A stretch of 58,038 nt of DNA from a virus (lineage: Duplodnaviria; Caudoviricetes): positions 1 through 58,038 of IMG/VR virus record IMGVR_UViG_3300027892_002924. One strand, 5' to 3'. Positions 4,820-57,607 of this stretch are shown here, one piece after another (the stretch's first letter is position 1; every line of letters begins with the position of its first letter). Below the pieces are notes generated by a model that was not told where the DNA came from, did no database searches, and saw nothing but the letters and a program-made list of their open reading frames with translations. The position numbers were made by a program, and so were the translations under genes.

Positions 4820-4850
4820 CTTCGACTCCTTTTTGTTTAACTTAGCCTAA

Positions 4851-4879
4851 ATTATAGCAAAATGGGAAAAAACGGTCAA
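4851..4879 (-). promoter_or_regulatory. sigma70-type early promoter
   Basis: TTGACC-17-TATAAT. Confidence 0.85.
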
Positions 4880-4885
4880 CCGTTT

Positions 4886-5146
4886 TTATTCAGAAAATTC
4901 GTAAATCTGGACGCTAGGATCCAGGGCCAACAACTGCCCAGCCACTTTGGTGAGCATGCGATATTTGGCTTGCACCTGGCTACGTGGCAGTTCGCCATCA
5001 CAGCTCAAGTTCTCAGGGCTGAGGTCTGAGTCGATTTTTTGTGCAAGAGCTTGACGATCTGCAGAGTTGCTGAGATCATACTGACGAGATTTGAAAATAG
5101 CATTCCAGCTATTTTGCTGTTTGACGTATGCGTTGAGTTCTTTCAT
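4886..5146 (-). CDS. conserved phage hypothetical protein (LSPENLSCDGE motif)
   Basis: ORF with AAGGAG SD. Confidence 0.8.
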   Translation of the reverse strand: MKELNAYVKQQNSWNAIFKSRQYDLSNSADRQALAQKIDSDLSPENLSCDGELPRSQVQAKYRMLTKVAGQLLALDPSVQIYEFSE

Positions 5147-5176
5147 TGCTGGCTCCTTTTGTTTAACTTAGCCTAT

Positions 5177-5205
5177 AGTATAGCAAAATGGGTATTTCTG
5201 GTCAA
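5177..5205 (-). promoter_or_regulatory. sigma70-type early promoter
   Basis: TTGACC-17-TATACT. Confidence 0.85.
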
Positions 5206-5232
5206 CCGTTTTGTTTGTTGCAAAAAAGCCAC

Positions 5233-5279
5233 AAAAAAACCCTTGATTTACAAGGGTTTTTGTAGTACTTTTGTTAACA
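5233..5279 (-). repeat. repeated stem-loop/upstream element, copy 2 (also terminator-like)
   Basis: TGTTAACAAAAGTACTAC-AAAAACCCTTGTAAATCAAGGGTTTTTTT just after stop at 5282. Confidence 0.9.
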
Positions 5280-5281
5280 GT

Positions 5282-6871
5282 TTAGTGGAACATCAAAAAC
5301 TGCTTGGAGACGTCCAGTCTGCTGGCACCCAGATCCCCGTGCCCTGCCGGGAACACAACCACGTTCCACTTGGGCTTTGGACCCTCTGGAATACGATTCA
5401 TCTCATCGTAGGTGACAATGGTGCCCACATCCAGTTTGTAGATGTCTGCCAGCTTTTGTTTGAACTGATTCCAATCTGCTTCGCTCTTGACCTGTGTGCG
5501 GCCTTTTTCGTCCTTGACGTATTTGCCTTTGGCATCTGTCACAAACAGTTCGCGGAACATGTCTTTGGGCAAGGTCACAGCATCCTTCACGTGCCGGCCA
5601 GCATCACGTTGTACCTGTACTGTTTTAACTTCACGGCTCTTGGCGCCAGGACTGAACTGTCCAATGACATCATCTGGTTGGTCAGCTGATGCAATATCGC
5701 CCATCTTGGTGTAGAAATAGAACTTGCAATCTGGGTTCTGTGCCTTGACACCCATTACCAGGTCATAGTATTCTTTGGAGAAGAAGTCGCCGGCATCGTG
5801 TACACGAACCAAGAGTTTGATACCATTCTTGGTGGCCAGTGCTTTGGCCTTTTTAACTTCAGTGTCAAACATCTTCATGTAGTCTTCAGGATGATTGACC
5901 AAGAAGTTCAGTGCCTGTGCCGCACTCATTGAACTTGCAGGAAACATTACATATCCGCCCTTGCGAGCATAACAGTATAGTTGGCATTCGCCTGCACCCG
6001 GGCAGGTGGTAATTTCTACAAATTCGCTGGTCTCTTCATCCACCACTATGCCTGAAAGTGCTGGTAGCGTTAGATCATAGGTAATAGAGCCTTCTATTTT
6101 GCTCTTGGCCATTTTGGCATTTGTACCTAGTATAGCTCTTGGACGAGTGGTGATTTGACGGGCTAGGTCATCTAGGTCCCATTCTTCATTGCCATCGTTT
6201 TTGGTAATTGCTTTAACGTTGCTACCATGAATGATAGGTTTGAATCTGTCTTGTTTGGTTTTTGTACCTGTCTTGATTCTAGTCAAGTAATCCTGCATGT
6301 CTTGTCTGCTCCAGGACTTTTGTGGAGCATCTATTTTGATTGCTTCGTCGACTTCATCCACTGTGCCAAGATAGTGGTGATCATGTACTCGATAACCTTT
6401 ACGCTTGTGATGTGCAATCGCAGAATTGATTGCAGCTTCACGGCTGTCACTGGTAACACGCACTGATTTTTGGTATGTTTCTTTACGCTTTGACACCATT
6501 GGATGGTTAGGGTCAGTTACTGTGAGTCCAATGCGGTGTGTGACTGGTGCACCACCTTCAGCTGTGACCACAGGCTTGCCACTTTTTCCTGTGTTGGCAC
6601 CAAGTCCAGATACTCGGCCTTTGGTGTTGCCACGACCACCGGCTGAACCAATATGTGCCGAACCTTGCCAGCCTTCGCCTTTGCGTGGTTTAGCCGGTTT
6701 GAGTCGTTGTATTTCGCCACCACGTGCTAGGAATGCTGCCACAGCGTCATCGTCTTCCGCCATACCTTGCTCGTCGACTTCTTGCTCTGCACCGCTGGGT
6801 ACACTTGCAATGACCTTGACGTCAAATCCGCCTAGGTTGCGTGTGGTTTCTGTTAGTTCAGTATATCTCAT
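5282..6871 (-). CDS. modular protein with C-terminal GP88-like (radical-SAM-like Cys cluster) domain; putative internal head polyprotein
   Basis: Start MRYTELTE by ATGA overlap; LPA..TCPGAGECQLYCYARKG..RVHDAGDF..FYFYTK. Confidence 0.75.
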   Translation of the reverse strand: MRYTELTETTRNLGGFDVKVIASVPSGAEQEVDEQGMAEDDDAVAAFLARGGEIQRLKPAKPRKGEGWQGSAHIGSAGGRGNTKGRVSGLGANTGKSGKPVVTAEGGAPVTHRIGLTVTDPNHPMVSKRKETYQKSVRVTSDSREAAINSAIAHHKRKGYRVHDHHYLGTVDEVDEAIKIDAPQKSWSRQDMQDYLTRIKTGTKTKQDRFKPIIHGSNVKAITKNDGNEEWDLDDLARQITTRPRAILGTNAKMAKSKIEGSITYDLTLPALSGIVVDEETSEFVEITTCPGAGECQLYCYARKGGYVMFPASSMSAAQALNFLVNHPEDYMKMFDTEVKKAKALATKNGIKLLVRVHDAGDFFSKEYYDLVMGVKAQNPDCKFYFYTKMGDIASADQPDDVIGQFSPGAKSREVKTVQVQRDAGRHVKDAVTLPKDMFRELFVTDAKGKYVKDEKGRTQVKSEADWNQFKQKLADIYKLDVGTIVTYDEMNRIPEGPKPKWNVVVFPAGHGDLGASRLDVSKQFLMFH

Positions 6872-8928
6872 TTTTTTGCCTTTGCTCTGCCTGATTTCAT
6901 GTTGGCCATCCAGTGTGCTAATTGTCCTTTGCGGCCGCCCTGCTTGGCTACTTTTCTTAATGTACTTATGCTGGCCTTGGTTGGTACGCCGTGGCGCTTG
7001 CTGTCGCCTTTGTCCTGTGGGTTTCTGCCGTCGGCAAAGTTTTCCGCCATGCCTTGCTGCCCTAACAAAGATTGCACCCATGGAATGAACGTGTTTATGA
7101 TCCAGTCATTGTGCTGTTTGCTTTTGTCCAGTGTGCTAGAATCTGCCACGCGACCATTTATTGTCACAGGCTTGATACTGTTCACAGCATCCGTGATTTT
7201 CTTTTGCACAGCAGGATCAGCATCTTTGATCACAGTTTGCAAACGACCAGCGGCTTCACTTTGTCTACCCTGCATGGCCAACAATGCCACACGTTGCAAA
7301 TTGGCAAACACAGGATCACCTAGGTTGTTGAACATTTTGTTGATGCCATCGGCTTTGTTTTCCGCTACACCTTGCTTGGGAATCAACAATTCAGGCATGC
7401 GATACTCACTGACGTCCACTGGATACGGCTGTAGCGATGCTTTATATAATTCAGCATATTGTTCTTGTTCTTCAGGTGTCTTTGCTCTGTAAAACTTGTT
7501 GGCAATGGCCATATCGCCTACTAGAGTTCCTGGTGGAATGGAAATCTTTTTTGGCCCATAGTATTTTAATTTGTCAGAATCTTTGTTGGTCAAACTGTAA
7601 AAGGTTGATTCCCACTTATCCGGATGCAAGGCATATTGTGCAGTTGCTCTTTCTGGAACAAACTCTGCAAGTGTATCTGCGCCTGGATGAAATTTACCCA
7701 ACTTGGATAAACTTATAGCAGTATCATTACTTTCGCCTTCCGCCACATCTTGTTTTAATCTACTCAATTCGTAACGGACTATACTGCCAGTGTCGGCACG
7801 CAAGGCTCGATATCCCCAGGCACGTGAATAACGCTGTACCAGTCTATCGTACAACTTGGCACGGCTTTCAGGATTAAATTTCTCCACATTGTCTGCGTCC
7901 ATGTCAACTTCTTTGCTGGCCGAGAAACTTAGTTTCTGCGGTTTGTATTTTTTAATGTATTTTTGTATAGAATCCAGCACTGTGGCAAAGATTCTTTGAG
8001 CATCACCTTCACCCGTGACTTCTTGGCTGTTGTTTCTATAAAACTCAACTTGCACGACTTCTTCACCTTCGTCACCGTACTCCTGATTGAACATGATACT
8101 TAGATTTGACCCATCTGGCAGTTTGGCCAACATATCAATATCGCCATAATCACTTTTTTCTGATTTGGTCTTATAAGGTTGATCAAATGCCTCTTTCATT
8201 ATCCAGGTGTCGGGTATCTGTTTGTACTTGCTTACCCACATGTCGTGCAACTTTTGCCCGCTGATGCTGTGGCTCCTGGCGATGCGTGTCATCATCTTGT
8301 CAATGGTGTTGTAAACTTGATCATCGTCGGCTGACTGTAATTTGGCTTTGTGTGCTACCAATGCCGCACGTAATTCCTCCACAGCACCACCATCTTTGTC
8401 GTGATCCATGTTTTCGGCCAGTGTGGATTGATTGTAGGCTTGTTGTATCAACTTGAGTAACAAGGCGCCTAGCTCACCTTCAATGGTCATAGCACAGGCA
8501 TAAACTTGATCATCGGCGCCGTCGTCGCCTATTACTTCTTCTATGTAGTGCCAGAGTTCACTTTCTGCACGAATATTGGAAACAAGATCAGTAAGCGCAT
8601 CATTAAGTTCGTCTTCATCACTGATCACAGCAGGGTCGAGGCTCATGAGTATGTTACTGACTTGAGACATAACTTCTCGTGCAAGTAGGTGATTGGCCAG
8701 ATCAAAGATTTCTTGACTTCTTCTGAAAACGCTGGCATCAGCTCCTAGGTTGAAAGACAGTGTTTTAGCAAAAGGACCAGTATTGGCATCTAGATTACCC
8801 TGTATCATCTTGACCATGCTGGGTATGCGCTGTTGGAAAGTAACACGGCGTAGGTCTTTGCCCACGCGGTCACTTTGACCAAACATGTCTTCTTCGTCGT
8901 TCTCAACAATTACTTCTCTGATTTTCAT
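6868..8928 (-). CDS. modular putative internal head polyprotein
   Basis: Leader MKIREVIVE; unrelated segments joined by Q(G/D)(V/M)AE, TLAE and IMKE junctions. Confidence 0.75.
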   Translation of the reverse strand: MKIREVIVENDEEDMFGQSDRVGKDLRRVTFQQRIPSMVKMIQGNLDANTGPFAKTLSFNLGADASVFRRSQEIFDLANHLLAREVMSQVSNILMSLDPAVISDEDELNDALTDLVSNIRAESELWHYIEEVIGDDGADDQVYACAMTIEGELGALLLKLIQQAYNQSTLAENMDHDKDGGAVEELRAALVAHKAKLQSADDDQVYNTIDKMMTRIARSHSISGQKLHDMWVSKYKQIPDTWIMKEAFDQPYKTKSEKSDYGDIDMLAKLPDGSNLSIMFNQEYGDEGEEVVQVEFYRNNSQEVTGEGDAQRIFATVLDSIQKYIKKYKPQKLSFSASKEVDMDADNVEKFNPESRAKLYDRLVQRYSRAWGYRALRADTGSIVRYELSRLKQDVAEGESNDTAISLSKLGKFHPGADTLAEFVPERATAQYALHPDKWESTFYSLTNKDSDKLKYYGPKKISIPPGTLVGDMAIANKFYRAKTPEEQEQYAELYKASLQPYPVDVSEYRMPELLIPKQGVAENKADGINKMFNNLGDPVFANLQRVALLAMQGRQSEAAGRLQTVIKDADPAVQKKITDAVNSIKPVTINGRVADSSTLDKSKQHNDWIINTFIPWVQSLLGQQGMAENFADGRNPQDKGDSKRHGVPTKASISTLRKVAKQGGRKGQLAHWMANMKSGRAKAKK

Positions 8929-11054
8929 CGTAGTTGTTTCATTTCTGGTTGATCATGCTCTAGGCCAGGGCTTGCATCGTGACTATCTTCTTCTGGCCAG
9001 CAGTAGATGTATTGTCCTGCAAAGTCTTTTACCAGCATCCAGCGAATACCTGCGGCTGTGTACATGTGTGTTTGTGCCTTGTAGCCTGGCATCACTTGTT
9101 CAAAGTCAATGTCACCAGGACCACGATCATCGCCGTGCTTTTTAAGGAAGCCTGCCACTGCATTGACTTCTTGTGTGCTGTTAGGCCCTTGGCCACCTAG
9201 GTTAGCAACCACATGTATGCGCTTGGTTGGAGTCATGGTCAAGCTACCAAACAGGCTCTTGCCCAGCTGGCGAATCTGATCAGCCATGTTGCCCGGCAGG
9301 TTGGCCACTTGATGGAACTCTGGATTCTGTACGCCTGCGGCCTGCAGTGCTTGTCCTGCTACTGCTGGCAAGTTCTGTGTGTTTACATCCACAGAGGGTA
9401 GATTCTCGGGCGGCTCATCTGGATAGGCTTCTAGGTCTTTATCAAGCTCAATGTTTCTCATGCGGCCCAGCATGTCGCTCATGTCAGGTGTGCTGAGTCC
9501 TGAGGTCTTGCTCAAGGTGTCTTTCTGGCTGGCCTTGCGTAAATTTACTTTGGTATCATCGACGCCAGCTTTCTTTTTAAGATCGTCCAGTGGATCTGTG
9601 TGTGCCAGTGGCTGGTCTTGCGCCTGTTGGAAAGGAATATCAAACTTGAGATCAGGCTTGGTCTTGGTTGTGGTCTTGCGTGGACGCTCTGGTGGCTCTT
9701 CAAGTTCTGCATCAACTTCTTGTAACTTTTCCCATGAGTCATTTGTGCTGGTATCGCCCGATGGATCTGTGTTCCATGCATCACATACTTCTTCATATGC
9801 GCCAAATAGATCACCCATTTCATCATCATCAACACCATATTCGGCTTGCATTCGGTCATCATACTCGTCGAACCTTGAAGTAACTTGCAGTGCCTGTTTC
9901 AAAGTTAGCTTATGGCTCAAAGCAAATCCAGCTATGGCACGAAAATTATATCTGTTAGGATCCATACGGCTCCACTGGTATAGTGCCTGTGCTGTTTTTG
10001 GTGGTGTTTGAGTACCGCCAAACAGCTCATCATCTGACTCATCGTTGTTATCTGACTCGGTCACGTCCTGGTGTTGGTCCAACAGTGCGCTGATGCTGAT
10101 TCCAGTGTCTGCTTCTAGGTTGTCCTCAAAGTTTTCCCACCAGTCTGGCATATATTCATGCCAGGCTCTCAAGCCTGGCACCATGCCTTGTTTTTCAAAA
10201 ACATTGGCCACAAACCTCACGGCCTTGGCCTCTTCACGAATTTCTTCTAGGTCGTTTTCGTATTCTTGCCCATCCTCTGGGCTCAGTCCTGATATCTCTG
10301 CAGGATTATTGCGCATGGTGTTGGCAAAGTTCATGAGCCATTGTGCAATGCGACGATGTGCAGGATTGCCAAATAGTTCGTCATTATCTGACTCGCCTAG
10401 ATCCTCACCGTAAGCAAGTGCATAGAGATCAATGTCAAGTACCTCTTCGATTTGTTCTGCGGCATTTTCTCTAAGCATGGTATCTAGGCCTCTGAATGCA
10501 TCCAGGCCTGCTTCCATTCCTAGCTTAAATGCATTTGAGACTTCCTCAAATGAATTAGCATCGCTTTCTGTGCCGTCAGCGTATTCAGAATCTTGGTCGT
10601 CAGCACGTTGGTCGTCTGCTATGCCATACCATTCTCTAGCCATTTCAGCAAAAAATGTAGCCAGTTGCGTGGATTTGCGATCAGCAAATAGGTCATCGTC
10701 TGAATCATCTTCTTTGAGGCTCAGGAACTTTTTTATGTTCTGCATGCTAAGAGGTAATTTCTCAACACCGTCCTCATCGTAGAATAAGAAATCAAGATCT
10801 TCTTGTGTTGGCTCGTCGTCAAAGTATGTGAAGTCAGGAATAAAAGCAATCTGATTGTTTTTACGATCAACAATGACCAAGCCTTCTGTTCGATGCTCAC
10901 CGCCATAGCTAATGCCGCCGCCACCTATTTTATAACCTAGAGCACCTTCTTCTGGGAATTCAAATTTGTCTGCCAGCGTGGACACCAGATGATTGTCGCC
11001 AAATAAGTCACTGTCGCTCTGGTCATTTTCTCTAATAAATTCTGTACTTTTCAT
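8925..11054 (-). CDS. acidic modular putative internal head polyprotein
   Basis: Leader MKSTEFIRE; four [ILV]xE-acidic-LF(G/A) junctions. Confidence 0.75.
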   Translation of the reverse strand: MKSTEFIRENDQSDSDLFGDNHLVSTLADKFEFPEEGALGYKIGGGGISYGGEHRTEGLVIVDRKNNQIAFIPDFTYFDDEPTQEDLDFLFYDEDGVEKLPLSMQNIKKFLSLKEDDSDDDLFADRKSTQLATFFAEMAREWYGIADDQRADDQDSEYADGTESDANSFEEVSNAFKLGMEAGLDAFRGLDTMLRENAAEQIEEVLDIDLYALAYGEDLGESDNDELFGNPAHRRIAQWLMNFANTMRNNPAEISGLSPEDGQEYENDLEEIREEAKAVRFVANVFEKQGMVPGLRAWHEYMPDWWENFEDNLEADTGISISALLDQHQDVTESDNNDESDDELFGGTQTPPKTAQALYQWSRMDPNRYNFRAIAGFALSHKLTLKQALQVTSRFDEYDDRMQAEYGVDDDEMGDLFGAYEEVCDAWNTDPSGDTSTNDSWEKLQEVDAELEEPPERPRKTTTKTKPDLKFDIPFQQAQDQPLAHTDPLDDLKKKAGVDDTKVNLRKASQKDTLSKTSGLSTPDMSDMLGRMRNIELDKDLEAYPDEPPENLPSVDVNTQNLPAVAGQALQAAGVQNPEFHQVANLPGNMADQIRQLGKSLFGSLTMTPTKRIHVVANLGGQGPNSTQEVNAVAGFLKKHGDDRGPGDIDFEQVMPGYKAQTHMYTAAGIRWMLVKDFAGQYIYCWPEEDSHDASPGLEHDQPEMKQLR

Positions 11055-13165
11055 TATCTGTCACCCATGAATGTTTGTATTTCTTTTTGGAACCAATCTT
11101 GTTGTGCTACGTCTGGATCATTGCCAAACATATCCCACATCTCTACCATGTCCTGATGCCATTCACCGGAGTCAATAAGTGTTCCAAAATCATTTAGTCC
11201 ACTGAATCCTCCTGCATATTCGCGCAGAATAGCATCAACTACTATCGCTTTACCAAATGGTGTGCTGGTTGACCTACACACTAGATCAAATAATCTATTG
11301 GCATCTGGTTCCTCGCCTTGGGTAAGTTTTTCATATTCTGCTTTAATACGAGGATTGTTATAGGCTTGTTCTAGTTTGGCCAACATCTGCTTACCAAATT
11401 TATAGATCATGCGCTGTGCGGCAGAACCACTTACCCCAAACATCTCATCATCAGATTCTTCTTCGCCTAGTCGACTAGATCGATCCAGATGCAATACTAT
11501 GTCATCACCTTGTCCGTCTTCGGCGCCTGTGAGTTTTAGAACTCGCCAGTTAACCGCGCCACCGTCCTCGAGGTAGTGATTTATTATATCAACATCTTGC
11601 TCTGGATGATCACCATAAGAAAATCCAAGTGCCTGCAATTCGTCTTCGTCATACTCGTTGAAGAAATCGCCAAATCGTATGGTAGGTGATGCAAACAAGT
11701 CATCGTCGTCATTGCTTTCGTCGATCGGGTCATCAGTTATTGGAAAATGCGCTACAGGCACTCCACTGTCGTCGTTGTTCCAACGCTGTTTGTACACCGT
11801 GATGAAATCGTCTGTGCCGTACCCAGCTTCCGAGTACCCTGGAATTTGTTCTTTGGCATGTGCTATTGCTTCGCGTATGTCACCAAACATGCCAAGTACT
11901 TCGTTGTCGGGTGCCGAGACTACAAATACCTTTTGTTCACCATCACCAAACAAATCTTCGTCTGACTCTGCGTTTTCGTTAACGGTATCGTCGTGGTCAG
12001 CAACATCCACGCCCATGGCATCTTCGATGTAGTTGCGTAGATCATAGCGTATGTCGGTGTTGCTTAGTTTGTACTTGCTCCATACATGTATGCCGTGCAG
12101 GAAGCTTCGATTGAATCCTGCAATCACTGCCTCTACGAATTCTACTTCAAACTGTGCCAGTGGGCGTCGACTGCCTGTTTGTCTACGGCGCAGCCATAGT
12201 TCAAGATCCTGTGCAATTACTTTAGTGTCTGGTCTGGTGCTGGACCCAAACATGTCGTCATCGCTTTCGTCAATTGGATCATCGGTTATTGGAAACTCAG
12301 CTACAGGCACTCCGCTTTCCTCACCCCGATTGTGTTTATATACACTGATGAAATCGTCATCACCCCAGCCATCTTCTAGGTATGATGGAATTTGTTTTTT
12401 GGCATATGCTATTGCTTGGCGTATGTCACTGAACGTGTTAAGTATTTCGTCGTCGGGTGCCAAGACTACAAATACCTTTTCTCCGCCGGCGCCAAACAGT
12501 TCATCGTCTGACTCATCATTTTCAGTTACTTTATTGGCTATGAGATCATATACAGCATCGTTGATACCATCCAGCATTGCATCTTGCTTGTCTTTGCCTA
12601 TTGACTTCCAGTAATGAAGCAAGGGTTCCCCTCCTGGGGTCTTGCCCAGTGCAAATCCAACCATGAAAGGACTGGTGATCAGTCTTGCAGATTTGTCTGA
12701 ACGAACAATGGCTCTTGCAATAGATTGTGTTAGAGTAGCGGCACTAGGCGCAGAGCCAAACAGTTCATCGTCGTTTTCTTCTCGCAACAGATCAGAATAG
12801 GTAGGAGGCACAAGAACACTAAGCCAACCTGAGCCTGTGAACTTACACTCAAACCCTTGCCTCTCTAGTTCTGCTTTTATTTCCTGTGCCACTGGAAGAG
12901 GTTTTGGTGCACGATCCCCTGGGCCCTTTACATAGTCACCAAACCAGAAAGTTGCTCTGCCACGAGATGCACTTTTAGGTATGCTACTCACACGAGTTTT
13001 TATTCCAAACCCTGTCTTGGCCAACTCACGCACCCGGCTCACTGTGCGTAGATACGGATCTTCTATCTGTTTGATTGCCTGCTTGGCGCCGGTGGCCAGA
13101 TTACCCGGCGCACTAAACATGTCGTCATCGTTTTTAATGGCTTCTATTATCTCACGATAACGCAT
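11054..13165 (-). CDS. acidic modular putative internal head polyprotein with duplicated domain
   Basis: Start reset to MRYREIIE; seven [ILV]xE-acidic-(L/M)F(G/A/S) junctions. Confidence 0.75.
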   Translation of the reverse strand: MRYREIIEAIKNDDDMFSAPGNLATGAKQAIKQIEDPYLRTVSRVRELAKTGFGIKTRVSSIPKSASRGRATFWFGDYVKGPGDRAPKPLPVAQEIKAELERQGFECKFTGSGWLSVLVPPTYSDLLREENDDELFGSAPSAATLTQSIARAIVRSDKSARLITSPFMVGFALGKTPGGEPLLHYWKSIGKDKQDAMLDGINDAVYDLIANKVTENDESDDELFGAGGEKVFVVLAPDDEILNTFSDIRQAIAYAKKQIPSYLEDGWGDDDFISVYKHNRGEESGVPVAEFPITDDPIDESDDDMFGSSTRPDTKVIAQDLELWLRRRQTGSRRPLAQFEVEFVEAVIAGFNRSFLHGIHVWSKYKLSNTDIRYDLRNYIEDAMGVDVADHDDTVNENAESDEDLFGDGEQKVFVVSAPDNEVLGMFGDIREAIAHAKEQIPGYSEAGYGTDDFITVYKQRWNNDDSGVPVAHFPITDDPIDESNDDDDLFASPTIRFGDFFNEYDEDELQALGFSYGDHPEQDVDIINHYLEDGGAVNWRVLKLTGAEDGQGDDIVLHLDRSSRLGEEESDDEMFGVSGSAAQRMIYKFGKQMLAKLEQAYNNPRIKAEYEKLTQGEEPDANRLFDLVCRSTSTPFGKAIVVDAILREYAGGFSGLNDFGTLIDSGEWHQDMVEMWDMFGNDPDVAQQDWFQKEIQTFMGDR

Positions 13166-14450
13166 GACCCTGCTCCTGTAGTTTTGCTGTGTACAGCTTG
13201 GGTATCTGGCGCATGAGGAATCTAAACAGCGGGTCACGCATCACAAGATCCTGTATGTGTGGGATCGCATCTTTATGCATTCTTGATCTTGAATTTGTCA
13301 AGGCCGCTACCAATGCTTGTCCTGACTTGCTGGTTTCAACAGGTATATGCAGTGATTTGTCAGCACTGAGGATAGACTCAATCTTGTCTTCACTGCGTTC
13401 TAGTCCTGGCTCTGCAATTATCTGGCTCCAGATCCCACCTTTTGCATTCATAGCCGTTATACACTGTGCTAGATAATCTCTCATGCCCGCGGCAATTGAT
13501 TCTTGTTCAGACTGTGCTAGATCAATACCATATTCTTTCAAGCTCTTGAAACCAAACCCAATGATACGATCAGCATACTGGTCAACCATTGCTGTTGTTT
13601 GTTTTATAACTGTAGGAGTAAACTCTTTGACAATGCTCTTGTACTCTTCGCCTATTAGTGGCGCTACTGAATATTTCTCTGCAGGTAGTTGTAGGATCTT
13701 GGTCAGCTCAGGAAATCGTTTTACCAATTTGGCAATACCGCCTGCACCAATCTGCTGATCTTGTTCGTCCATGAACTGTTTGGTTTCAAAGTGGAACTGA
13801 TACTTTTCTCCAGGATACGCCTGCTGACGTGGAATAATAACATACAGTGGGCGATTGCCTTTGGTGTAGTAGTTAAACAGGTTGTTGTTCTTGCCTGCGG
13901 TACACCAACGAGTACCTTGCCCATAGTAGCAGGCGGCCTGCTCGTCCTGCGGGATAGTAACAATCAGATTGCTGTCACGATAGAGTTCTTGGGCGTTTTG
14001 TTTGACTTCTGGCTTGGCTTCTTCCTCTTCAGGGTATTCGTCTACCACATCATAAAAAGATTCTAGATCTCGATATCGGTTGAAGTCATTGCGTGGAGGC
14101 TGTATCTTTTTCTTGCGCTTGAGACGATCAAACTTGACCAGATAGTCAGCCAGTGTAGATACCACGTCTTCCATCTTGCTCAGTCCATTGCTATACATCT
14201 TGGCAATGCTCTGGCTGTATTCTTTGTTGGGTGTTGGGTCACCTTTTTCAATATACTGTAGTATCATATCTATCAACTGTTGTGGCTGTGTCTTGGCCAG
14301 TTCTTTAACAGTTGCGCCTTGTGGTAGTTCAGCTTGTATTTGCATGAGCAGCCAACGGTCTTGTCCCATTGCGGCAATCAGCTTGTTACCATAGGCATCT
14401 GCTGTTTTGTTGCGATCGTACTCTAGCAGTACTAATTGGTTGTATCTCAT
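13152..14450 (-). CDS. hypothetical protein with PcfJ-like domain
   Basis: ACYYGQGTRWCTAG..LFNYY..PLYVII..KYQFH; leader MRYNQLVLLE. Confidence 0.65.
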   Translation of the reverse strand: MRYNQLVLLEYDRNKTADAYGNKLIAAMGQDRWLLMQIQAELPQGATVKELAKTQPQQLIDMILQYIEKGDPTPNKEYSQSIAKMYSNGLSKMEDVVSTLADYLVKFDRLKRKKKIQPPRNDFNRYRDLESFYDVVDEYPEEEEAKPEVKQNAQELYRDSNLIVTIPQDEQAACYYGQGTRWCTAGKNNNLFNYYTKGNRPLYVIIPRQQAYPGEKYQFHFETKQFMDEQDQQIGAGGIAKLVKRFPELTKILQLPAEKYSVAPLIGEEYKSIVKEFTPTVIKQTTAMVDQYADRIIGFGFKSLKEYGIDLAQSEQESIAAGMRDYLAQCITAMNAKGGIWSQIIAEPGLERSEDKIESILSADKSLHIPVETSKSGQALVAALTNSRSRMHKDAIPHIQDLVMRDPLFRFLMRQIPKLYTAKLQEQGHALS

Positions 14451-16126
14451 TCAATGATCTCCGGATGTTCTTTGCCGTATAATTTCATCAGATACCCGGC
14501 TTCGGCATCTGCATCACGTTCTAGCGGGCTACCAGGAGGATTGTGTCCTTTGATACGACCTTCACTGCCCTGTTTGCGATGACGCAGTTCGTGTGCTATC
14601 GTGCGCAGTATGTCGATTAGATTGCGATTGCCAGTGTACACCCACATGGTATTGGTGTCTGCATTGTACCATCCGGTATGATGCATGTCTTCACTGTCTT
14701 TTTTGTTGGAAAGTTCTATATTAGGGCGTGGCGCATCAATGCGTTGTTTTTTGTATACCCAGTCGACAAAATGTTCAATGCGTTTCATTTGATCTGATTG
14801 ATCTATGTCTTCAGTGATTTCTTTGTCAGGCTGCACAGCAACAGGCATGCTTCGGTCCTGACTCTTCAACTGCTGTGGTTCATGCTCACGCTCTTTGCGT
14901 ATGATCTCAAAGCCACGCTTGAGTCCTTGTACCACAACATCCAGGCTGTCTTCGTCTGCCTGATACTTGATACCAATACCACCGGCTGCTTCCCACTTGG
15001 AGATGTTGTCGCCGCGGTCATCAATCAAGAAGTTAGGCGTGCCATCTGGTTGTGTGGCATACTTGGGTTTGTTGGGAGTGATAACAATGTCCTTGGGCTG
15101 TGGGCTTAGATGTTCGTTAATCCATACTGTCTTTTGTACTTCGCTGTTTTTAAAATCGCCACGCAGTGGACTAGAGCAGATGTTGTAGTGGCCAAACAGT
15201 TTGACCACCATGCCAACTAACGAGTCTGCTGTGGGAAACTTTGGTAGTCGCGCAAAGAAGTCTGTGCCTATCATCATGTTCAGTGTAGGATCTGTTTTGG
15301 CAGGAGGAATGTCTCTGTAGCTGCCGTTTTCGACTCCTGCCAGCTTGGCATACTCTGTAAAGAAGTCTGCCAGTACCCCATCCATATCTAGATACATCTC
15401 TGGTTTGTATTCTGTACGTGCGGCTTCACGCAGGCCTAGTCCTTGGTCTTCAAGATTGCCCATGTGCTTGCGCAGTTTTTCTAAACTGCCATCTGCACGA
15501 AGTATTTTGAATGCAAGATTCTCAGGGGAGAACTCTCCGCCCGACTCCAGTCCTGTTTTTCTCATGCTCTTGATAGAGGCCCACAACTGAGCCACACTGT
15601 CGTGATTGTCACTGACGATGGCCTGGTTGATACGATGTTTCACACTACGATACTTTTCTTGTACTTCAATGTCATCTACCTGCGCACGTTGGCGCTTGGG
15701 CTGGCTGATCCAGCGATCATGTTGTACGCTGTAGATACCCATGCTGTGGTGTGCATCTTCTGCGTCCTGTACATAGAGTTCGACATCGTACCCGCGGATA
15801 CGGATATTGTGTTGATCGTTGTACTGATACTTCTTGGCTGTGAATAATTCTTTTAGTTCTGCTTCGTGCTCATCTGGAATCATTACCACAAGATGTAGAT
15901 CAATGTCTGAATTGGGTGTGTAGGTATAGGCTGCATTACTGCCCGAAATTGTGATGTCCACAAGATCAAACATGTCAATGCCCAGGAAGTCTTTGAAGTG
16001 ACGAGCAATGCGCAGTAGAGTTTTACGAACTCGCGGCTGTAGCTTGTCCCCTTTCCATAGTGCAGGGTTCAGCTCATCGTGAAAATTCACAGCAAGATTT
16101 AGTTCTTCAAACTCGTTTAGGCGCAT
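14447..16126 (-). CDS. fusion of Pol-beta-type nucleotidyltransferase, HAD 5'(3')-nucleotidase and zincin-like domain
   Basis: GSNA..SDIDLH..DVELY; YLDMDGVLADF..LIDDR; AHELRH..ERDAD. Confidence 0.8.
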   Translation of the reverse strand: MRLNEFEELNLAVNFHDELNPALWKGDKLQPRVRKTLLRIARHFKDFLGIDMFDLVDITISGSNAAYTYTPNSDIDLHLVVMIPDEHEAELKELFTAKKYQYNDQHNIRIRGYDVELYVQDAEDAHHSMGIYSVQHDRWISQPKRQRAQVDDIEVQEKYRSVKHRINQAIVSDNHDSVAQLWASIKSMRKTGLESGGEFSPENLAFKILRADGSLEKLRKHMGNLEDQGLGLREAARTEYKPEMYLDMDGVLADFFTEYAKLAGVENGSYRDIPPAKTDPTLNMMIGTDFFARLPKFPTADSLVGMVVKLFGHYNICSSPLRGDFKNSEVQKTVWINEHLSPQPKDIVITPNKPKYATQPDGTPNFLIDDRGDNISKWEAAGGIGIKYQADEDSLDVVVQGLKRGFEIIRKEREHEPQQLKSQDRSMPVAVQPDKEITEDIDQSDQMKRIEHFVDWVYKKQRIDAPRPNIELSNKKDSEDMHHTGWYNADTNTMWVYTGNRNLIDILRTIAHELRHRKQGSEGRIKGHNPPGSPLERDADAEAGYLMKLYGKEHPEIIE

Positions 16127-20534: not shown

Positions 20535-20565
20535 TCTATCTCCAAATTTATTTAACTTAGCCTCT

Positions 20566-20594
20566 AGTATAGCAAATGGGTTCTTTTGTGTCAA
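20566..20594 (-). promoter_or_regulatory. sigma70-type early promoter
   Basis: TTGACA-17-TATACT. Confidence 0.85.
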
Positions 20595-20598
20595 CCGT

Positions 20599-20646
20599 AA
20601 AAAACCCTTGATTTACAAGGGTTTTTAGGTAGTACTTTTGTTAACA
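20599..20646 (-). repeat. repeated stem-loop/upstream element, copy 3
   Basis: TGTTAACAAAAGTACTAC-CTAAAAACCCTTGTAAATCAAGGGTTTTTT. Confidence 0.9.
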
Positions 20647-21431: not shown

Positions 21432-21704
21432 ATGGAAATTATTATTGCGCTTGTAGTTGTGGGTGTTATCGTTGCATTTTACTTTAATCGCAAAGAGGCA
21501 ACTTCTGTTGATGCAGTTGCACCCGGTGGTGCACCTTACAAGGTGCCAGAACCAGTTGTTGAACTAGAACCAGTTGTTGAACTAGAACCAGTTGTTGAAC
21601 TAGAACCAGTTGTTGAACTAGAACCAGTTGTTGAAGCACCTGCTAAAAAGCCAGCTGCCAAGAAGCCGGCACCGGCTAAAAAAGCCGCACAACCCAAGAA
21701 ATGA
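21432..21704 (+). CDS. membrane-anchored protein with EPVVEL repeats and Lys/Pro/Ala tail
   Basis: N-terminal TM helix, AAGGAG SD, TAAATA upstream. Confidence 0.8.
   Translation: MEIIIALVVVGVIVAFYFNRKEATSVDAVAPGGAPYKVPEPVVELEPVVELEPVVELEPVVELEPVVEAPAKKPAAKKPAPAKKAAQPKK
21549..21635 (+). repeat. perfect 18-bp tandem repeat
   Basis: GAACCAGTTGTTGAACTA x4 plus a 15-bp partial copy. Confidence 0.95.
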
Positions 21705-56467: not shown

Positions 56468-57607
56468 TTATCCGTTCTTGGCAAAGTTTGCCTTGCTGAA
56501 TCCCAGGCGATCAATCAGCTTCATCTTTTCGTCGCCACCACCTACTACATAGCCTTCGTGTCCCGAATCATTGCCGGTGAATGCTTGTATATCGCCTGCA
56601 CCTACCTGTGTGTCAATCTGTTGCTTGATGTTGAGTTTCAAATTGTATATTGCTACCCAGATAGCAAATAATCCTTCTAGTCCCGGTGCACCTTCTTTGT
56701 ACAACCAGCCGTCTTGGTTACTGCCTAGCAATTTACCAGCTGCCGCTGGACTTAGCTTGCTTGGCAAATACTGGTAGAAGCCTGCCAGCATGTTATCAAA
56801 TGATCCACCAGTGATCTTGCTGGTGATATAGGTACTGATAGCCCCGAGCACTCCCTTGGCTTTCATTGCTGTCAGCTGACCAATAAAGTCAGTTACTGCA
56901 CCTTCATATTGTTTAATAGTTGAGTTTGCGGCATTGACTGCGCCTGTATCCATCTTGACCTTGGGTACAGGCATCTCACCTGTTACAAACCATATGGGAC
57001 CATCTGAAGGCAAGCCTCCAAGACCAGTAAGAGGTTGGTCACCTTCGCCAATGCCAGGAATAAATGTGTGTACTGCAATACCAGCCACACTAGAACCAAT
57101 GTGCTTGCCTGCGCCGCTGTTGGCTTTGACCTTGTAGGTCACTGTGTTGGGTTTGAATGTGTAAAATCCGTTGTCTGGTGATAGCTTGCCTGCATACAAC
57201 AGGTCGCCCATGTAAAAACCACGAAAGTTCTTGGGAATAATTTTTTCTAATGCACCCCAGATCACATTAACTTTGCCATATAGGTCAGCACGGTCAGCAC
57301 CACGATTGGCATCATACTGTTGGAACGCTTGTGGGCTGGTCACACGACCTTCGCCTGACTTTTTATCAAACATGTGCTTGTCCACGACCATGAGCTCACC
57401 ATCAACATTACGACCAAACACCAGTGCTGGAAATCCGTCCCACTTGATTGTGGTCAATTCTTTGCCTTTGGCCATTTGGCCTAGTGCTGCCACTGCACGT
57501 TGTGCGCCAGGAATGCCTTCGCCGAACACCAGGTCTTCTGGATGTACAATGTGTGCGCCTTCAACTATGCGTTTGCGACTTTCGGTAATAATATCTCTGA
57601 TCTTCAT
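56468..57607 (-). CDS. DUF6267-like protein with ligase-type KxDG motif
   Basis: HPEDL, TIKWDGFPALVFG, MGDLLY, FKPNTVTY, HEGYV, KLIDRLGFS; leader MKIRDIITE. Confidence 0.7.
   Translation of the reverse strand: MKIRDIITESRKRIVEGAHIVHPEDLVFGEGIPGAQRAVAALGQMAKGKELTTIKWDGFPALVFGRNVDGELMVVDKHMFDKKSGEGRVTSPQAFQQYDANRGADRADLYGKVNVIWGALEKIIPKNFRGFYMGDLLYAGKLSPDNGFYTFKPNTVTYKVKANSGAGKHIGSSVAGIAVHTFIPGIGEGDQPLTGLGGLPSDGPIWFVTGEMPVPKVKMDTGAVNAANSTIKQYEGAVTDFIGQLTAMKAKGVLGAISTYITSKITGGSFDNMLAGFYQYLPSKLSPAAAGKLLGSNQDGWLYKEGAPGLEGLFAIWVAIYNLKLNIKQQIDTQVGAGDIQAFTGNDSGHEGYVVGGGDEKMKLIDRLGFSKANFAKNG

Follow-up and report, generated by a model that had tools for sequence, protein, structure and literature searches.

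A repeated 15-nucleotide linker at the module junctions of multi-effector proteins in a giant freshwater phage, its probable cleavage by a prohead protease and its possible use as a recombination seam

Four short repeats inside two adjacent phage genes raise the question of whether one stretch of 15 nucleotides (nt) can encode a cleavage signal and also be the place at which protein modules are exchanged. The repeats lie in a window of 58,038 nt, which is the whole of the IMG/VR virus record IMGVR_UViG_3300027892_002924 (Duplodnaviria; Caudoviricetes), and the two genes encode the multi-module proteins called here P0001 (686 amino acids, aa) and P0002 (529 aa). The original prediction, made from the letters of the sequence, saw in them such a double-use site and likened it to an integron array inside a gene. 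With moderate confidence we hold that the 15-mers encode a linker, Q-(G/D)-(V/M)-A-E, of capsid-targeted polyvalent multi-effector proteins, which would be cut by the prohead protease and whose DNA would act as a recombination seam, in a freshwater phage of ~360 kb with T4-type head genes.

The pattern CAAGRYRTRGCGGAA has exactly four matches in the window, all on the minus strand, at the four predicted junctions and with the predicted letters (Table 1); the expectation from 100 dinucleotide-preserving shuffles is 0 matches. Copy 1 is the border between a 34-aa N-terminal piece and the DDDAVAAFLARGG... module of P0002, and the other three are junctions inside P0001. GCG had looked rare for Ala in these genes, and it does account for only 8.3% of 1390 Ala codons in window open reading frames (ORFs) of at least 100 aa (CAA 57.8% of Gln, GAA 75.1% of Glu), so that GCG in all four copies is unexpected at window usage (0.083^4, ~5e-5). 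The flanks of the four copies are mutually unrelated, as had been said of the modules, and this speaks against recent duplication, which had been offered as another source of the copies. Other details of the original prediction fared less well. Modules of 300-360 bp had been described, and the measured spacings between copies are 287, 318 and 378 nt; the interval 6770-7041 is not one module, because it spans the ATGA stop/start overlap of the two genes at 6868-6871 and contains the 57-aa C-terminal tail of P0001 together with the 34-aa N-terminus of P0002. The stretch 7378-7737, thought to be AT-rich, is slightly lower in guanine-plus-cytosine (GC) content (41.5%, against 42.2% and 46.2% in neighbouring modules and 44.3% in the contig), but the effect is weak and marginal.

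Scanning relatives for the motif, which had been proposed as a check, found it far beyond the window. With P0001 as protein query, 1201 of 8000 scored candidates reached E<=0.001, and the best 120 of these 1201 relatives typically cover 18-40% of the query at 60-95% identity. Domains joined to P0001-like modules in the relatives include Pol-beta nucleotidyltransferase (NTase), GNAT, zeta-like kinase, ParB, deaminase, NUDIX, NT5C and DUF6934. The pentapeptide Q[GD][VMIL]AE occurs in 87 of 119 among the matches listed, with recurrent spacings of 126, 106, 123 and 102 residues. At DNA level, the window and the 80 IMG/VR loci retrieved with P0001 together hold 60 unique copies; with loci found by the exact 15-mer included the count is 211, flanked by 175 upstream and 173 downstream decamer types, and 96 of 110 exact 15-mer copies lie inside open frames of at least 184 codons. 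When recurrent types (seen twice or more) are considered, 27 of 28 upstream types pair with at least two downstream partners and 26 of 28 downstream types with at least two upstream partners.

Homology between loci also tends to end at the motif. When all loci were compared with one another by blastn, 1742 unique homology ends fell inside motif-bearing frames, and 337 of these lie within 3 nt of a motif, compared with 2.4% for random positions (maximum 3.7% in 200 trials), an eightfold excess. Contigs of four lake metagenome runs give the same kind of break: one contig of run X10 joins 6768 to 7360, motif to motif, and three contigs of run X14 match the window from 7360 upward and diverge exactly at 7360, with further divergence points at 7063, 7031 and 6871-6873. 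Because one module meets many partners and homology ends at the motif, the linker is read as a seam. Runs X2 and X10 also carry a 228-nt skip inside module N3 (7773 to 8002); this length variant has no motif at its borders.

Constraint on the motif codons, beyond what codon usage would give, had been predicted and is borne out. The codon counts rest on 108 unique copies gathered without selection for the exact 15-mer (for 48 of these the bias even runs against it), and the background was taken from motif-bearing frames (44 frames in one count, 119 in another). Ala is GCG in 78 of 108 copies (72%) against a background of 6.8%, Gly is GGT in 78 of 95 (39-44%), Val is GTG in 49 of 79 (21-23%) and Gln is CAA in 98 of 108 (72-75%); Glu is GAA in 82 of 108 against 82%, with no enrichment. 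Taking one copy per flank combination leaves the result unchanged (GCG 75/105). The canonical 15-mer makes up 17 of the 46 QGVAE copies in the unbiased set, whereas the product of codon usages predicts ~0.4%.

Conservation extends slightly past the peptide. In the -1 codon, GAG is preferred to GAA (26 vs 10), AAG to AAA (25 vs 3) and CAG to CAA (10 vs 5), where the backgrounds are 18%, 32% and 25%, so the 'AG' before the motif stays constant while the residue varies among Glu, Lys and Gln. The base after the motif is G in 87 of 108 copies, and a following Gly is GGC in 30 of 45. Beyond about -3 and +3 the conservation stops, which confines it to a consensus of ~20 nt, RAG-CAA-GGT-GTG-GCG-GAA-G. 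Among 5433 pairs of copies that share neither flank, the same-codon fraction is 0.65 in the motif and 0.43-0.46 in the flanks; for pairs that share one flank it is 0.68-0.74 in the motif, so codon identity in the motif does not follow relatedness. Module M4, used as control in 47 aligned copies, is at least 90% conserved as protein, yet its four-fold sites are randomised, with a diversity of 0.4-0.75 and rare GCG. The opening three codons of M4, GAA AAC TTT, hardly vary (45, 44 and 47 of 47), a further sign of constraint right at the junction. Synonymous and flanking-base conservation across unrelated contexts calls for a force acting on the nucleic acid.

A serious rival places that force in the mRNA. 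It says that the linker is a protease or flexible-linker signal only, that rare illegitimate joins occur anywhere and selection keeps those with intact linkers, and that the codons are held by selection on mRNA or translation, through a local pause or an RNA-protein contact. We judge it rather improbable. The motif codon identities (0.65, 0.68 and 0.74 irrespective of shared flank) look like an equilibrium constraint, synonymous variants are not concordant within a locus, and most homology end points lie away from canonical motifs, all of which would suit such selection. However, the preferred codons mix rare ones (GCG, GTG, GAG/AAG) with common ones (CAA, GGT, GAA) and form no rare-codon cluster. 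For generic anti-Shine-Dalgarno pairing, the canonical encoding stands at rank 1421 among its 2048 synonymous versions, by which a Shine-Dalgarno-like pause was rejected. A common RNA or DNA hairpin of the attC kind was rejected as well: motif-centred 75-mers fold at -14.1 kcal/mol and controls at -13.0, without consistent structure, and motif bases are paired no more than their flanks. Moreover, the preceding base is G across three amino acids, and the motif persists at ORF ends with nothing after it. In some ORFs the stop comes directly after QGVAE, and these ORFs share their next gene although their upstream modules differ; no peptide is left to release at that junction. We know of no RNA element of this kind. 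Two other candidates were also rejected, an internal start (no start codon stands at a fixed distance after the motif) and a Chi-like genome-wide signal (motif 7-mers occur only 2-6 times per strand in the window).

The peptide side of the linker is best understood from the leaders of these proteins. P0001 begins with MKIREVIVE, and the six genes of the array to which it belongs begin, in order from 16126 to 5282, with MRLNEFEEL, MRYNQLVLLE, MRYREIIEA (from Met25 of the listed frame), MKSTEFIRE, MKIREVIVE and MRYTELTE, following the form M-[KR]-x-x-[EQ]-hydrophobic; we scored the array as carrying leaders of about 10 residues that end hydrophobic-x-Glu. The T4 internal proteins (IPI, IPII, IPIII, Alt) have a short leader of the same design; in the T4 record, ipII and ipIII both start with MKTYQEFIAE, to be compared with MKSTEFIRE and MKIREVIVE here, and the first 30 nt of these two T4 genes do not differ. 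Across the loci, 52 of 92 motif-bearing ORFs have a leader of the form M-x-x-x-[EDQ]-[LIFVM]-[FILVMYT], compared with 161 of 1234 other ORFs, an odds ratio of 8.7. At 26 distinct ORF N-termini, a leader of 9-10 residues ending in Glu stands directly before a module that elsewhere follows the motif, for example before NTADGINKMF (M3) in locus L002, AFDQPYKGK (N3) in L006 and NFADGRNP in L026. Since leaders precede motif-following modules in this way, leader and linker are interchangeable at one border, always after Glu.

The predicted cleavage signal fits T4-type logic (hydrophobic P3, Glu P1). The T4 prohead protease prefers Leu or Ile at P3; the T4 leader ends I-A-E and the linker V/M-A-E, although the whole Q-G-V-A-E linker differs from the T4 leader sequence. 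In the available sections of two papers, the prohead proteases of T4, phiKZ, 201phi2-1 and SPN3US are described as cutting after Glu, with the motifs S/A-X-E in phiKZ and A-X-E in SPN3US (PMC5694885, PMC9026906). The first 10 residues of T4 IPIII form the capsid-targeting sequence, whose processing hinges on residues 8 and 10, Asp at position 10 being blocking (PMC9026906, same sections). Circumstantial support of this kind, by sequence and by analogy, is strong, and the linker is probably a prohead-protease site, cut after Glu with a hydrophobic residue at P3.

Less probable than selection on the mRNA, and in our view unlikely, is that the motif is a recombination seam and domain linker without being a prohead-protease site, the proteins staying whole or being cut by another enzyme. 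Such an enzyme might be the HExxH domain in the first gene of the array: a HELRH stretch at the C-terminus of the 559-aa product (14450-14809, minus strand) weakly matches DUF6782, a putative metallopeptidase, at E 0.005, and embedded metallopeptidases have been proposed, in passages of PMC5512222, as the releasing enzymes of polyvalent proteins. Cleavage of the linker is a prediction, and no late promoter lies near the array in the window. Nevertheless, the metallopeptidase match is below its cut-off (16.6 vs 27 bits), the last Glu of the linker is invariant with V, M, I or L two residues before it, as the after-Glu specificity of the T4, phiKZ and SPN3US proteases would have it (PMC5694885, PMC9026906, as above), and the linker swaps with T4-like leaders that end in Glu.

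What kind of phage carries these genes can be told from larger relatives. CheckV rates the 58,038-base record 16% complete, from which a genome of roughly 360 kb is implied, the window being ~16% of a giant freshwater phage. Window genes include a ribonucleotide reductase, a tail-spike-like gene and other phage genes, and 39 of 78 window ORFs of at least 80 aa match the complete 364-kb record G003 by tblastn, largely collinearly (30.9-57.6 kb of the window with 145-174 kb of G003). The surroundings of the array at 5282-16126 differ from the motif-bearing loci of G003 (~52-61 kb there), and four of the six array genes have no match in G003, as expected for a hyperplastic accessory region. Peptidase_S77, the family of the T4 gp21 prohead protease, was found above the Pfam cut-off in 4 of 5 large records with P0001 relatives, including 3 of 3 complete ones, and a Gp23-family capsid protein in 4 of 4 large records tested. 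At the expected propeptide end, the relatives' capsid proteins read ..YLAE/T or ..YLKE/N (the slash marks the border). Each of the three complete relatives has a RecA/UvsX-family gene. Megablast of the P0001 and P0002 genes against named phages gave no match, and tblastn of P0002 only five partial matches.

According to our model, three steps would link these observations. By analogy with T4 and from the comparative data, the leader of 9-10 residues on each array gene would bring its product into the prohead. The gp21-family protease would then cut after Glu with a hydrophobic P3, that is at the leader (..F-I-x-E), at the linker (G-V/M-A-E) and at degenerate forms (L-A-E, M-K-E), and the released modules would be injected with the DNA as independent effectors. 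Finally, as the comparisons show, modules have recombined among phages at the linker seam; the phage's own general recombination of the RecA/UvsX type would carry out this exchange during co-infection, with no dedicated site-specific recombinase. Each new junction would inherit the canonical sequence, and drifted junctions would lose mobility. We infer from sequence comparison that the linker DNA is a preferred seam for short-homology module exchange, with the crossover itself falling within the 15-mer. General short-homology recombination between co-infecting phages is the simplest account of such a seam.

Several observations weigh against this combination of protease site and seam. The window has neither a protease gene nor a capsid gene, and the HExxH stretch of the first array gene is a possible alternative processing enzyme. 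T4-type late promoters are absent near the array, with 2 matches in the window where 2.04 are expected. Sequences of 15-20 bases are short for RecA-type recombination, and homology that ends at a linker is also expected from random illegitimate joins filtered by selection. Other Ala codons than GCG occur in 22-28% of copies. M4, the module with the widest spread and the greatest mobility, is often preceded by degenerate forms (PVAE, SVAE, GVEE, IMSE and others) in which only Glu is invariant, and record G002 has M4 and no motif copy. For no codon was concerted evolution within a locus significant, the observed value being reached in 119 to 1124 of 2000 shuffles; this lack of homogenisation is in keeping with exchange in a broad pool rather than with local gene conversion. 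In addition, 1309 of 1742 homology end points (~75%) lie more than 30 nt from a canonical motif, and other junctions have no motif. The idea that module changes are bounded by the motif thus holds for an excess of ends far above chance and fails for the majority. Judged by such comparisons, the motif is a widespread module junction, a major seam but one among several. Similarly, of its predicted role as crossover point, the preferred junction stands, while exchange does not require it and a crossover inside the 15-mer is our deduction.

More speculative is a stronger claim for the DNA, to which we give only a small chance. Here the ~20-nt RAG-CAAGGTGTGGCGGAA-G would be a dedicated, selected recombination signal that turns effector domains into in-frame mobile cassettes among giant freshwater phages, a gene-internal counterpart of integrons and shufflons. 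It would be serviced by a nuclease, a recombinase or copy-choice replication, and the encoded peptide would have been co-opted as maturation-protease site so that new combinations are processed automatically. Smaller still is the chance of a true 'integron inside a gene', in which a site-specific recombinase or homing-type nuclease moves in-frame cassettes, possibly via circles. A discrete site of ~20 nt strongly conserved at nucleotide level with its flanking bases, and pervasive combinatorial module order, would be natural to such a system, and T4-type phages are described as making mini-circles by exchange between repeated regulatory cassettes (PMC2839356, available part). However, no tyrosine (PF00589) or serine (PF00239) recombinase was found in the window and no tyrosine recombinase (PF00589) in five related large records, in a search whose controls were positive in 14 of 14 genomes; nucleases were not searched systematically. 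The site has no hairpin or inverted repeat, and complete genomes hold 0-6 copies, on one strand and in 1-3 loci. Contigs of the four runs contain no go-back joint between motif copies, and contigs cannot show rare circles. Because no recombinase was found, copies are few and on one strand, and go-back joints are missing, a site-specific system is unlikely. Chance, recent local duplication and metagenome mis-assembly at a short repeat, suggested by the mere four copies in the window and by the metagenomic origin of the contig, can be dismissed, since shuffles give no match, the flanks are unrelated, 211 unique copies occur in more than 100 other loci, and the arrangement is reproducible: 20 runs from freshwater or lakes, with 20 study codes, contain the 3.6-kb stretch at a sampled-word fraction of 0.83-0.97.

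Comparison with known systems places the seam and the protease site among familiar themes. Integron arrays (attC x attI, IntI) also consist of ordered interchangeable units with a recurring site, but those are promoterless gene units with folded attC sites, whereas here the modules are in-frame and there is no integrase, no attC-like hairpin and low copy number, and the likeness to an integron array drawn by the original prediction has to be given up. In polymorphic toxins, a short conserved peptide motif (VENN in CdiA; PxxxxDPxGL in Rhs, also an autoproteolysis site) borders a variable module; the motif is retained in spare cassettes and allows the module to be replaced by recombination. Those toxins are bacterial, exchange a single C-terminal module, are cleaved autocatalytically and do not form multi-module strings. 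For T-even phages, Repoila and colleagues reportedly described in 1994 a polymorphism of the internal-protein locus with short repeats flanking accessory units.

The T4 internal proteins share with the present system the leader type, and a protease of the gp21 family is encoded in genomes related to the window. They are separate small genes with one N-terminal site, whereas, at gene level, up to six modules per protein with a repeated internal linker are found here. The leader is all that their cargoes, a varied and rapidly evolving set of anti-host proteins, have in common (PMC3012670, PMC12373910, available sections). Polyvalent proteins likewise carry many unrelated effector domains per polypeptide that are thought to be delivered with DNA, with a domain repertoire like that of our relatives (GNAT, Pol-beta NTase, zeta-like kinase, ParB, NUDIX, deaminase), and are viewed as polyprotein-like and freed by proteolysis (Iyer et al. 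2017, PMC5512222, in passages). Several unrelated effector domains per polypeptide are indeed found in P0001, with six modules, and in its relatives. In contrast, release by an embedded metallopeptidase was proposed for polyvalent proteins, and those passages of PMC5512222 describe no conserved inter-domain linker or codon conservation. Neither P0001 nor P0002 has a MuF, portal or peptidase domain, so the metallopeptidase/MuF/portal mark of the polyvalent type is absent. In promoter/stem-loop (PeSL) shuffling of T4-type phages, as here, short DNA repeats flank accessory units and are proposed crossover points (Arbiol et al. 2010, PMC2839356, available part). The phage lineage type is the same, and PeSL-like cassettes also occur in the window. 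PeSL repeats are intergenic and regulatory and move whole genes (same part of PMC2839356), whereas the repeats here are in-frame, ~15-20 nt long, frame-keeping and peptide-coding; the 15-mer is no intergenic promoter with stem-loop, as most exact copies are inside open frames.

Three features appear to be new. The first is a repeated internal linker by which many cargo modules are joined into a single capsid-targeted protein; the second is the very wide use of the linker among freshwater giant phages, and the third its conservation at nucleotide level. No description of this linker was found in the open-access literature searched (supplements excluded), and a search for QGVAE gave only alpha-synuclein papers among the matches listed. 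If our reading is true, giant T4-type phages build and rapidly re-deal their arsenals of injected effectors in this way. One short sequence would be both cut site and in-frame exchange seam, and new strings would be packaged via the leader and then split into functional pieces. To find candidate injected proteins in metagenomes, one can use the grammar 'leader - module - QGVAE - module ... - basic tail', and the linker gives exact domain borders for well over 100 module types of unknown function (175 upstream, 173 downstream). It may also be a naturally occurring format by which several cargo proteins could be loaded into T4-like capsids. Finally, synonymous sites in a phage coding region are here under strong and cleanly visible constraint (GCG 72% vs 7%), for which a mechanism is wanted.

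Table 1. Positions of the motif copies, genes, modules and neighbouring elements in the window
Feature	Position	Strand	Residues	Remark
Motif copy 1	6755..6769	-	aa 35-39 of 529-aa P0002	CAAGGTATGGCGGAA = QGMAE
Motif copy 2	7042..7056	-	aa 625-629 of 686-aa P0001	CAAGGCATGGCGGAA = QGMAE; M3/M4 junction
Motif copy 3	7360..7374	-	aa 519-523 of P0001	CAAGGTGTAGCGGAA = QGVAE; M2/M3 junction
Motif copy 4	7738..7752	-	aa 393-397 of P0001	CAAGATGTGGCGGAA = QDVAE; N3/M2 junction
Array of six back-to-back genes for large multi-module proteins	5282..16126	-		559, 432, 727, 709, 686, 529 aa
P0001 gene	6868..8928	-		686-aa multi-module protein, six modules
P0002 gene	5282..6871	-		529-aa multi-module protein; GP88 domain (PF17338) at aa 250-437
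Leader of P0001	8902..8928	-		MKIREVIVE, like T4 capsid-targeting leader
Module N1 of P0001	8416-8928	-	aa 1-171	
Module N2 of P0001	8191-8415	-	aa 172-246	
Module N3 of P0001	7738-8190	-	aa 247-397	weakly GNAT-like
Module M2 of P0001	7360-7737	-	aa 398-523	
Module M3 of P0001	7042-7359	-	aa 524-629	
Module M4 of P0001	6871-7041	-	aa 630-686	57-aa basic C-terminal tail (NFADGRNPQD...AHWMANMK...)
Non-canonical junction QSTLAE/N	8416..8430	-	aa 167-171	relatives' homology starts at aa 170-181
Non-canonical junction WIMKE/A	8191..8205	-	aa 242-246	high-scoring segment pairs end at aa 245-248, start at 243-244
Intergenic cassette closing the array	5146..5281	-		terminator hairpin 5233-5261, TTGACC 5200-5205, 17 nt, TATACT 5177-5182, ribosome site

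Six modules are assigned to P0001 because tblastn end points cluster and because of the predicted model. Against the fetched loci, ends pile up at aa 245-248, 397-402 and 683-686, and starts at aa 170/181, 243/244 and 623-629; the P0002 start overlaps the P0001 stop. In locus L001 a leader stands directly before the module that follows STLAE/N. An AlphaFold2 model of P0001 (46-row alignment) has confident blocks at ~181-245, 250-392, 540-623 and 640-686, and the predicted local distance difference test (pLDDT) score is below 50 at 168-175, 393-444, 503-537 and 625-635, the junctions between confident domains. Foldseek of this whole-protein model against the PDB gave no match at E<=0.001, the weak rows being mostly GNAT acetyltransferases. 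Pfam and PHROGs searches of single modules returned weak or unknown-function matches only, and the ESM Atlas nothing usable for P0001 residues 398-629. M4 is nearly always the last module in relatives, at least 90% conserved, is joined to many phage enzymes (DUF6321, deaminase, NT5C, pterin-4a dehydratase, GNAT clusters) and also exists as a solo 58-aa protein.

The array has a second junction-like motif, acidic and of the form E-[SN]-D-D-[DE]-[LM]-F-G, every 100-130 residues in the 709-aa and 727-aa genes (8925-13237, minus strand), and as ENDEEDMFG directly after the P0001 leader (8880-8928, minus strand). A module bounded by it is duplicated within 11054-13237, where 11705-11988 and 12254-12534 are 77-84% identical. 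In the 559-aa gene, an NTase-like N-terminal part (phrog_36119) is fused with an NT5C deoxyribonucleotidase. Following the cassette that closes the array, a start codon ATG lies at 5144-5146. The combination of terminator and TTGACC-17 nt-TATACT is repeated at least five times in the window, and similar cassettes at 1905-1940, 2456-2511, 2687-2801, 4827-4886 and 20546-20646 resemble the PeSL cassettes of T4-type phages. Over 5151-5301, contigs of all four metagenome runs show a 10- to 40-fold rise in word depth, and a go-back joint from 5192 to 5000 was found in metagenome contigs at the cassette near the array end. Elsewhere in the window, a 379-aa protein (phrog_455; 56468-57607, minus strand) has a leader of the same kind, MKIRDIITE, and contains a KWDG stretch that may resemble the motif for nucleotidyl transfer in ligases. 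At 21530-21637, about five head-to-tail repeats of an 18-nt unit, AGAACCAGTTGTTGAACT, follow one another.

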